From contig NC_134028.1 of NCBI RefSeq assembly GCF_964204645.1, positions 17,491,653-17,555,652 of the forward strand: a stretch of 64,000 nucleotides of DNA, in the 5' to 3' direction. A program made the position numbers and the translations under genes. Of the stretch, positions 54,638 to 56,332 are shown in pieces (the stretch's first letter is position 1; every line of letters starts with the position of its first letter). The notes under the pieces are model-generated. The model searched no databases. It saw nothing but the letters and a program-made list of their open reading frames with translations, and had not been told where the DNA came from. The DNA comes from Tubulanus polymorphus. Taxonomy: Eukaryota > Animalia > Nemertea.

Positions 54638-54789
54638 AGTAATAGGGATAATAGGGGTTCAGGTTAAAGGTTGAAGGGGCGAGTGAGTAAAAAATGAAAA
54701 ATAAATTCGAGCGTGCGTGAATTCATTTTTCATTTTTTATGTGCTCGACCCTTCGACCTTTGGCCTGAACCCCTATTATCCCTATTACT
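54638..54789. repeat. 152-bp fold-back hairpin at the apparent terminus of fragment 4
   Basis: AGTAATAGGGATAATAGGGGTTCAGG... and ...CCTGAACCCCTATTATCCCTATTACT arms of about 70 nt with a 10-nt loop. Confidence 0.85.
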
Positions 54790-54847
54790 ATTGCAAATTC
54801 TGTTAATTTTTTGAATTTATAATCCACAGATTTGATATTTGTATTTG

Positions 54848-54977
54848 TATATATATATATATATATATATATATATATATATATATATATATATATATAT
54901 ATATATATATATATATATATATATATATATATATATATATATATATATATATATATATATATATATATATATATATA
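54848..54977. repeat. (TA)n microsatellite, about 65 units
   Basis: Directly visible. Confidence 0.98.
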
Positions 54978-55922
54978 CAAACATAATGCGTTAGCTTCCA
55001 TTCGTTTTTTATTCAATCTTTATAGCTTACGATAACTGAAAATATACAATATTTCAACACTCTTAACATATATTTAATACTTTACAAAATCAAAGAAATC
55101 AGAATAATATGAATAGGCCTATATCATACCGTGATAGTTTGGCTATCAAGCCCACACAAAATTGAAAAGCCATAGTTCTTCTTCGAACACAGTTTACAGA
55201 GAGACAAAATCCAAAATCTCAGGAATCAGGAAATTGTATCTAGTAAAATTCTAGTCTGTGATAGGTAAGCAATGTAATGCTAAATATGAAAATTCACACA
55301 TGGCATTTATTCTCACAAGCCAGATTTTGAATAGAATAAAGCCATACAAACTCACAGTAAAGTCGACTAAGCACGAAAAAACAAAATACCTGAACAAAAC
55401 TTAATAAACTGATTCTAATTACTAAATTTGAGTGCAACTTTTATAAAGGTATTAAAATATTCAGTTACAATCATATTTTTGAACCATTTTCATCATATAT
55501 AGGCTACGGATTAGAATTCATCCAAACTCAAAATGCCTAGTTAGTTACAAAAAATGTTATTTTAGGCCACACACAGAAATACCCAAGTTTCTCATCAGAT
55601 TTTTTACTGAAAAGTGACTAGGGCGGGCGAATTTTATTTTCATTGTTTTTTTAGATAAAAAGCTCTAGCTGAGACTTATAGAACATAAGCGGGAGGGAAG
55701 TTTTTTCTTTCACTAATGCCAAACAAATACCAGTACAAGTAAAACATATGCAAAAAACTTTATTTAGAATTAAGTAGCTCCGAAAAACCTATAAAATCAA
55801 ACTATATCGACTCATTTAATCGAAATTGAGACAATTATATTAGCTTTCTCGAAATGAAGTAAAAGGAAACGAACATGGCGCTGTTTTTGTCACCGTAAAT
55901 ATGGATTACGTACGTCGAAGAT

Positions 55923-56332
55923 AGTAATAGGGGTAATGGGCTTTCAGGCCAAAGGTCGAAGTGTCGAGCTCATTAAAAAACAAAACATTGAAAGTAATTT
56001 AAAACTATAATATATTTTCATAACCGTGTGTATTTTATATTATAACTAAATATTTATTCTAAGATATTAATAATTTTAATTTTAAAAGCATATTGTATTA
56101 AATCAATTGGTCGCTCCGCTCTGCGACCGCTCCGCTCCGCGACCAATTGATTTATTTACAATACACAAATTCATACAATCAAATATATTTTAATAATAAT
56201 AATTATTCTATTATTCAACTGAAATACACACGGTTATGAAAATATATTATAGTTTTAAATTACTTTTAATATTTGTTTTTAATGAACTCGACCATTCAAC
56301 CTTTAACCTGAAAGCCCATTACCCCTATTACT
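55923..56332. repeat. 410-bp imperfect fold-back hairpin at the apparent terminus of fragment 5
   Basis: Outer stem of about 110 nt (AGTAATAGGGGTAATGGGCTTTCAGG...CATAACCGTGTGTATTT) and apical stem AAATCAATTGGTCGC/GCGACCAATTGATTT around GCTCC repeats. Confidence 0.85.

Follow-up and report, generated by a model that had tools for sequence, protein, structure and literature searches.

Covarying terminal hairpins of fixed orientation at the ends of an animal Polinton family with a predicted protein-primed polymerase

Polintons/Mavericks and Beta-type adintoviruses, to which the elements analyzed here are similar, encode a pPolB with terminal-protein and vOTU domains that is not matched by PF03175, together with an rve integrase, an A32 ATPase and a double jelly-roll capsid protein, and are bounded by terminal inverted repeats (TIRs) starting with 5'-AG (PMC8502044, PMC8097293). 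The account of their copying rests on a proposed model in which the two ends of the excised strand would pair together. In the literature on Polinton, Maverick and adintovirus ends, no report of end hairpins in animal pPolB elements was found, although supplements and Repbase could hold some, and the word hairpin is absent from the main texts of Starrett et al. (PMC8502044) and of Barreat and Katzourakis (PMC8097293). In the virophages of Halocafeteria seosinensis and in PLV subtype 4, palindromes lie within the terminal repeats, beside the target duplication, as they do in the elements described below, and hairpin priming has been proposed for them (bioRxiv 10.64898/2026.07.28.741278). These palindromes belong to protist elements with mostly non-pPolB replicases and measure 52 nt in the example shown, whereas the present family is animal, has longer palindromes and encodes a pPolB with a predicted terminal-protein domain; covariation, fixed orientation and strand bias are undiscussed in the terminal-palindrome section of that preprint.

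Several other systems share part of this arrangement. Streptomyces telomeres likewise combine protein priming with palindromes that fold on the 3' strand, where the fold-back templates the repair of truncated ends, but they are bacterial, carry several short palindromes, depend on Tap/Tpg and DinB in place of pPolB, replicate from an internal origin and have no integrase (PMC5449611). Parvoviruses (the MVM left end, the AAV ITR) resemble the present family in having a 3' terminal hairpin with conserved mismatches, which in MVM-type left ends occurs in one orientation (PMC1185569, PMC8242256); they differ in using a host polymerase, an HUH nickase and ssDNA genomes, none of which was found in the window family. 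Poxvirus telomeres are also long, incompletely paired terminal hairpins with conserved mismatches, but they are covalently closed and exist as flip and flop, in contrast to the single orientation and the integrated, extended form of the family studied here (PMC8956199).

Self-comparison of the window, that is, of the whole 64,000-nt stretch of Tubulanus polymorphus DNA that was analyzed, uncovered three decayed copies (A, B and C) of one Polinton family. Element A begins at 27234 and contains the ATPase; B extends from 37728 to 54789 and contains the polymerase gene, with a BEL/Pao insertion inside the element; C begins at 55923 in the orientation opposite to B, contains the integrase and capsid genes, and extends beyond the window. 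The features are as follows.

27234..27384, plus strand: left (polymerase-side) end of A; terminal AGTAATA, followed immediately by the inner arm and the leader
35060..35458, minus strand: A32-like packaging ATPase fragment of A; Pfam Pox_A32, E 9.8e-6 at 35063-35458, above the cut-off
37728..37853, plus strand: left terminal repeat of B; partial inner arm and leader, truncated by a piece of another transposon
37845..43111, plus strand: broken pPolB gene of B; interrupted by an insertion at about 38400-39630 and also frameshifted
45001..49019, plus strand: BEL/Pao retrotransposon inserted in B (DUF1759, DUF1758, Peptidase_A17); separate from the hairpin finding
54550..54637, minus strand: leader of B, the inner part of the TIR up to the first ATG; 96% identical to 37728-37853 over 127 nt
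54638..54789, minus strand: terminal hairpin of the right (HNH-side) end of B; 152 nt, 5' terminus AGT at 54789
55923..56332, plus strand: terminal hairpin of C; 410 nt, the same end type as the right end of B, in opposite orientation
56333..56367, plus strand: leader of C, common to the other ends up to about 56367
57756..58364, plus strand: HNH-like nuclease ORF adjoining the end of C; homologues in B at 52121-52762 and 53890-54589
60515..61090, plus strand: broken rve integrase of C; Pfam rve, E 6.6e-10 at 60515-61087, above the cut-off
61059..61905, minus strand: fragments of the double jelly-roll major capsid protein gene of C; 32% identical (E 4e-36) to an ORF of a relative

By gene content, the element is an ordinary Polinton. 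The PolB gene of B encodes zinc fingers followed by terminal-protein, vOTU, exonuclease and polymerase domains, with an endonuclease VII insert in the exonuclease (Endonuclease_7, E 2.8e-4, below the Pfam cut-off). A low-confidence model (pLDDT 53) of the relative's capsid ORF matches the capsid proteins of PBCV-1, iridovirus and Sputnik (E 2e-6), and a sequence search of solved structures with the capsid protein gave no matches. The ORF at 57756-58364 is taken to be HNH-like from its motif, Pfam returning no match for it, and ORF 43498 is possibly a penton-like minor capsid protein; no adenain-like protease ORF was noticed on inspection of the ORF lists of A-C and of related elements from one other host (G001). 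The right 4 kb of B and the first 4 kb of C are inverted homologues (71-89% identity), so that the two full hairpins both mark HNH-side ends, their elements lying tail to tail. The two ends of B, 96% identical over their 127 nt, are TIRs that begin with 5'-AG, and the end motif of the family is AGTAAT rather than the (AGT)2 or (AG)3 of Polintons and adintoviruses. The two other ends in the window, at 27234-27299 and 37728-37765 on the polymerase side, consist of the inner arm and leader without a full outer arm. At the left end of A, the outer arm was probably lost by deletion, the chance of finding the terminal 7-mer within 60 sites being about 0.8%; at the left end of B, the intruding transposon piece (37682-37718) is an inverted match of 38474-38494. 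No element in the window has both ends intact, and target site duplications were seen in relatives.

The window is a nest of insertions. Immediately beyond the right end of B, the flank at 54796-54843 derives from a 117-aa gene of this same family (92% to 43192-43239), which places B inside a sister copy. A transposase remnant with 24-nt inverted repeats, which we take to be Harbinger/PIF-like, lies at 36300-37560, a second DNA transposon (38400-39630) occupies the polymerase gene of B, and a 1.2-kb repeat family with internal 154-bp units (at least 4 copies, 85-91% identity) spans 4024-19908. Near the HNH-side ends of B and C (52908-53125 and 57185-57646), units of about 116 bp, each containing a palindrome, are repeated in tandem. 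An A/T-rich motif at 27338, 27728 and 37813 on the plus strand and at 54590 on the minus strand, about 30 nt before the start codons of several element genes, is possibly a candidate promoter.

Each of the two full ends folds back on itself over its entire length, and it is these palindromes of 150-410 nt, in fixed orientation, at the opening of the terminal repeats that set the window family apart from described Polintons and adintoviruses. The DNA fold of 54638-54789 reaches -61.9/-56.2 kcal/mol (z about -17; as stable in 0 of 200 and 0 of 200 shuffles) and that of 55923-56332 reaches -117/-125 kcal/mol (z about -22 to -23; 0 of 100 and 0 of 100). The terminal 26 bp are perfectly paired in both hairpins, and all four positions at which the copies differ within these 26 bp are compensated on the partner arm. 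The hairpins, their lengths and arms, the common leader and the common asymmetry are therefore as an earlier, sequence-only reading of this locus had described them, including arms that diverge between copies yet remain complementary within each. Four mismatches are common to both copies, 27, 28, 35 and 47 nt from the end, and all are G.T pairs on the strand that terminates the element with its 3' end (the 3'-end strand). That reading had placed G.T pairs only on this strand, which holds for the mismatches that it cited but not for the whole hairpins, where the ratio of the 3'-end strand to the other is 8:1 (152 nt) and 11:2 (410 nt), alongside 3 and 20 mismatches of other kinds, respectively. 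Its companion claim, that the 3'-end strand is favored to fold, agrees both with the G.T bias and with a gain in stability of 5-8 kcal/mol for this strand. Since G.T pairs are tolerated on the 3'-end strand, this is the strand that appears to be folded. The hairpin tips carry a repeated motif of the CTCG(C)/GCTCCGC type on the 5'-end strand (window 54706-54722 and 56110-56145), which recurs in a related family with 5'-ACACAC ends (L091, L093 and L094) and is absent from the end of another relative, G004:C28; we regard its resemblance to the GAGC repeats of the AAV Rep-binding element as a putative likeness.

To place the hairpins relative to the true ends of the elements, we used read pile-ups from four of five public runs bearing the species label, the raw-read run coming from another sample and study and being represented by about 12% of the run. 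At the C end, 2,157 reads (543+1614) exit at 55922/55923 with a flank agreement of 0.34-0.35, which denotes many different flanks, and at the B end 1,802 reads (1372+430) exit at 54789/54790 with a flank agreement of 0.34-0.37. Depth around C is 2-5 at 55300-55500, rises to 80-200 over an unrelated repeat and reaches 1,400-2,100 per bin across the hairpin, with a peak of 3,036 reads at 55962. Taking 55300-55500 as single copy, these depths correspond to roughly 500-1200 ends per genome equivalent. The terminal outer arm has 0.92 times the depth of the leader, and no major loose end was found at the inner boundary of the hairpin among the 6 loose ends listed per hairpin, so that nearly all arms run on into the leader. 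Leader reads divide into two end types, 400 of them diverging at 56367 to the leader type of the other end, and read depth suggests that most left and right ends contain the whole palindrome. The hairpins are thus true Polinton ends with the terminus at AGT: the mixed flanks start exactly there, homology between copies ends there, and nearly all arms continue into the leader, so that the unit is not a free MITE. An independent MITE, an assembly artefact or a chance fold-back after insertion might have been suspected in such a nest of insertions, all the more as template switching can create palindromes, but reads from another sample cover the whole hairpin 1,300-3,000-fold, the outer arm is nearly as deep as the leader, and the same layout is found in other hosts. 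This explanation is refuted for most copies and overall is scarcely credible.

The reads also reveal how the two arms evolve. At seven inner/outer pairs of positions, substitutions in one partner and the complementary substitutions in the other agree in frequency: 54648/54779 (52/40%), 54653/54774 (49/43%), 54656/54771 (63/80%), 54657/54770 (70/79%), 54662/54765 (28/19%), 54663/54764 (34/42%) and 54676/54751 (18/15%), as drawn from 40 of the 82 variants in unphased reads. Stem positions therefore covary across subfamilies, as the within-stem complementarity of the window copies had led the sequence-only reading to expect. Two of the shared G.T pairs turn Watson-Crick in one-quarter to one-third of the reads, and among the variants listed, one change, at 54696 (13%), runs contrary to the strand bias, its partner possibly lying outside those listed. 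In the well-aligned stems of 7 ends, with the shared four removed, G.T pairs on the 3'-end versus the 5'-end strand number 14:3, which upholds the proposed bias at a nominal P of 0.006 for events that are not independent.

A one-strand bias of G.T/G.U pairs is the usual sign of RNA structure, and an outward transcript folded with G.U pairs would fit it. However, the stem base falls on the element's first base in all families seen, a B-box motif is lacking in 7 of 7 hairpins, T-runs lie within the stem in 6 of 7, and all 14 Rfam matches fall far below the gathering score. Action of the structure as RNA accordingly appears improbable.

One hairpin orientation dominates. Among the loose ends listed, none joined a flank to the inner-type arm, as a flop end would, which bounds such ends at <11% for C and <19% for B (these bounds being table cut-offs rather than counts, with 664 and 175 further loose ends outside those listed); nor were the letters swapped at the conserved G.T sites among the variants listed. 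Both complete relatives (2 of 2) have one hairpin orientation at both ends. These observations bear on hairpin telomeres of the poxvirus or AAV type, processed by a junction resolvase or by terminal resolution, a route that long mismatched hairpins and an endonuclease VII-like insert in the polymerase might recall. A nick opposite the hairpin, or a cruciform cut on either diagonal, passes the palindrome of the opposite strand to one of the products, so that flip equals flop. Both mechanisms invert the palindrome and predict a 1:1 ratio, whereas a single orientation was seen in the reads, the opposite one staying below about 11-19%, and in the two complete relatives. Selection by the integrase would hardly restore the imbalance, because the terminal 26 bp are identical in flip and flop. 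Hairpin resolution of this kind, which the sequence-only reading had entertained, is hence very improbable. A single orientation is instead expected if the palindrome is copied linearly, as with terminal-protein priming, or resolved asymmetrically, as at the MVM left end.

A polymerase alignment search identified relatives at 14 viral-contig loci and at 59 loci in prokaryotic genome bins, the latter taken to be stray host DNA. The hairpin scan covered 14 of 14 viral-contig loci and the 34 of 59 bin loci of >=4 kb, followed by hand-picked stretches (18 and 19 of 20). Most other relative loci have no identifiable ends. In one host (G001), two complete elements end in hairpins. The first (G001:C67, 3805-23212) starts with 5'-ACACAC, has repeats of about 230 bp with 159-nt hairpins in the same orientation at both ends, and encodes a polymerase of the endonuclease VII-bearing type, as in the window family; its target duplication, 5 or 8 bp inside a TTA repeat, adjoins the extended palindrome. 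Two sister ends, on G001:C50 and on G001:C9 (169-282), have different, compensated stems yet share a one-base bulge at position 20 and a lopsided tip, so that the asymmetry in the ACACAC family is a bulge and not G.T. The second complete element (G001:C9, 291-15427) starts with 5'-AGTAGT, has 174-nt hairpins at both ends, in which 28 perfect bp are followed by a G.T pair on the 3'-end strand, carries a 6-bp target duplication and encodes a polymerase of the PF03175 (Alpha) type. In these relatives the target duplications directly adjoin the extended palindromes. A further end hairpin, of 286 nt in G004:C28, combines 29 perfect bp with a G.T ratio of 8:0 over the whole stem.

Overall, a terminal hairpin is present in 2 of the 6 related elements with both ends visible and absent from the other 4 (G003:C156, G004:C2, G002:C30 and L019), a count that leaves out G003:C217, where a 91-bp perfect inverted repeat lies at the contig ends. 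G003:C156 has 164-bp repeats without a long hairpin, with no target duplication seen, and the terminal-repeat-like pairs of G004:C2 and G002:C30 likewise lack long hairpins. In L019, whose contig ends there, the first 50 nt were considered as an inner arm and rejected, folding no better than shuffles (z 0.3 and -0.6). Since 4 of 6 related elements do without it, the hairpin is not required for Polinton replication in general. The expectation of a hairpin at both ends of intact copies thus applies to two complete relatives and fails for these four, with the polymerase-side ends in the window lacking a full outer arm; that of 6-bp target duplications applies exactly to the AGTAGT element, while the ACACAC element has 5 or 8 bp and G003:C156 none seen. 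Other pattern-based candidates proved spurious: an IMG/VR match (L001) arose by chance within a phage terminator, six metagenome matches (L002-L007) all come from a single coding stretch of bacterial appearance that is not similar to the window, and a scan with a second end pattern gave 0 matches.

Additional observations were made on the architecture of these relatives. The AGTAGT element (L117, 291-15427) and the ACACAC element (L038, 3206-16865) have closely similar capsid-side genes and different polymerase types and end motifs, the former being PF03175-positive and the latter endonuclease VII-bearing, with hairpin ends in both; the end sequence seems to accompany the polymerase. L038, otherwise complete, also contains an internal tandem duplication of about 4.7 kb (5774-15594) that takes in the polymerase end, the integrase and three further genes. 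In G002 contigs C493, C315 and C606 (L032-L034, L042, L067, L128-L131), inverted arms of 2-7 kb that include the polymerase gene and are 89-98% alike flank a spacer of about 6 kb conserved between contigs; a related element occurs here in tail-to-tail or giant fold-back form.

The window PolB is 59-86% identical to an intact natural protein, P0121, over residues 1-1358, and its named homologues come from animals (Mytilus, Clytia, Stylophora and insects); used as a single query against viral contigs, P0121 found none. In the N-terminal model of P0121 (pLDDT 80), four strands and two helices form a fold whose Gly-Ser-Gly loop lies after helix 2 and ahead of strand 4. This fold resembles the Y-family little-finger (LF/PAD) domain (2r8j, Z 8.2, rmsd 3.2, 103 aligned; 4ir1, Z 7.9, rmsd 2.6, 94 aligned), and a viral OTU fold comes next (6oar, Z 7.3, rmsd 3.5, 102 aligned), Z values of 7-8 being middling on the search tool's own scale. 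The order and fold of these domains are those assigned to the terminal-protein and vOTU domains by Krupovic et al. (10.1101/2024.03.18.585575). The GS loop is present in 70 of 71 long homologues, and the loop and the Cys motif occur in order in 67 of 71; both are present in the otherwise broken window copy. PF03175 at E 0.1 does not match 4 of 4 relatives, in line with the OTU-bearing PolB of Beta-type adintoviruses, which is undetected by PF03175 (PMC8502044). The family polymerase thus appears, from structural modelling, to retain the predicted terminal-protein and vOTU domains, because of which a loss of protein priming is not supported. On inspection of the ORFs of these broken, incomplete copies, neither a Rep/HUH nor a helicase gene was noticed, and no Rep family appeared in a Pfam scan of 23 ORFs.

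We propose, with a probability of about 0.5, that the 3'-end strand folds back when single-stranded, rebuilds a duplex origin for the predicted terminal-protein-primed polymerase and templates the repair of frayed ends. Strand-displacement synthesis would release a single strand, the 3' end of which would pair with the inner copy of the end sequence to form a built-in local panhandle, making long-range pairing of the two element ends unnecessary; panhandles give protein-primed replicons a comparable local duplex (PMC4046053). The polymerase would then initiate at this duplex with the terminal protein and copy the whole palindrome linearly, keeping its orientation. With the inner arm as template, brief fill-in and proofreading of the 3' end would transfer inner-arm changes to the outer arm and homogenize the distal stem, yielding a perfect, covarying first 19-29 bp. 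The asymmetric tip, together with the bulge or G.T pairs conserved at 20-35 nt, would serve as putative binding marks, and the integrase would insert the fully extended linear duplex. At Streptomyces telomeres, fold-back repair precedes terminal-protein priming, and homogenization by such fill-in has been shown (PMC5449611). Because a 3'-OH at the base of the stem is a ready primer, fold-back rebuilding of the origin would need a block on run-on extension, which the authors of the Streptomyces study likewise held must be prevented (PMC5449611). Among the roles suggested earlier for these hairpins, end protection or repair fits best.

That same 3'-OH, exactly at the stem base and pointing inward, lends itself to a hybrid rolling hairpin, in which the folded 3' end self-primes the second strand and gives rise to hairpin-closed and dimer forms. 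The proposed terminal-protein polymerase, or else a nuclease, would then re-initiate asymmetrically, using just one of the two dimer-bridge arms, which the conserved mismatches would select much as the bubble does at the MVM left end. Self-priming would fit the observations only in such a hybrid that preserves orientation. Conserved one-sided irregularities at 20-35 nt in several families, the endonuclease VII-like insert and large inverted duplications among related elements are in keeping with this scheme, as are two parvovirus precedents in which hairpin priming can keep one orientation: at the MVM dimer bridge, a spacer of two versus three bases makes resolution asymmetric (PMC1185569), and bocaparvoviruses have single-form termini (PMC8242256). 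Yet no Rep/HUH or helicase gene was noticed, the terminal-protein domain is enough by itself to account for initiation, and a perfect head-to-head junction is absent from the window, where B and C stand 1.1 kb apart with unrelated DNA between them. We consider the hybrid possible but tentative, and with it, equally tentatively, the idea that a widespread subset of animal Polintons uses such a scheme, which has no described counterpart, to regenerate a single-orientation end for the integrase.

Finally, the palindrome could be a recognition or packaging signal for the integrase, the packaging ATPase or a capsid-associated protein, with no role in initiation. The mismatches of vaccinia hairpins serve packaging or virion maturation and not replication (PMC8956199), and the conserved mismatches here, together with an asymmetric tip in which the 5'-end strand of the window and G001 ends repeats a (G/A)CTCG(C)-type motif, could be read in the same way. 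A signal would nonetheless leave unexplained both the perfect, covarying pairing to the last base and the preference for the 3'-end strand, and we judge this explanation unlikely.

The finding itself is the end structure, its fixed orientation and its coexistence with predicted protein priming, for which fold-back rebuilding of the origin is a proposed mechanism. Neither the fixed polarity nor the link to intact protein priming was found in print in the literature on such ends. The ends of the window family carry a conserved, covarying and strand-polarized structure in hundreds of copies, and hairpin-ended relatives keep this layout across different types of polymerase and different end motifs. 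A fixed orientation speaks against a route of the poxvirus/AAV kind, leaving two models, linear copying and asymmetric resolution. As hairpin ends are easily lost in short-read assemblies, they may be under-annotated. The terminal palindromes of protist virophages are now extended to animal elements that retain predicted protein priming.
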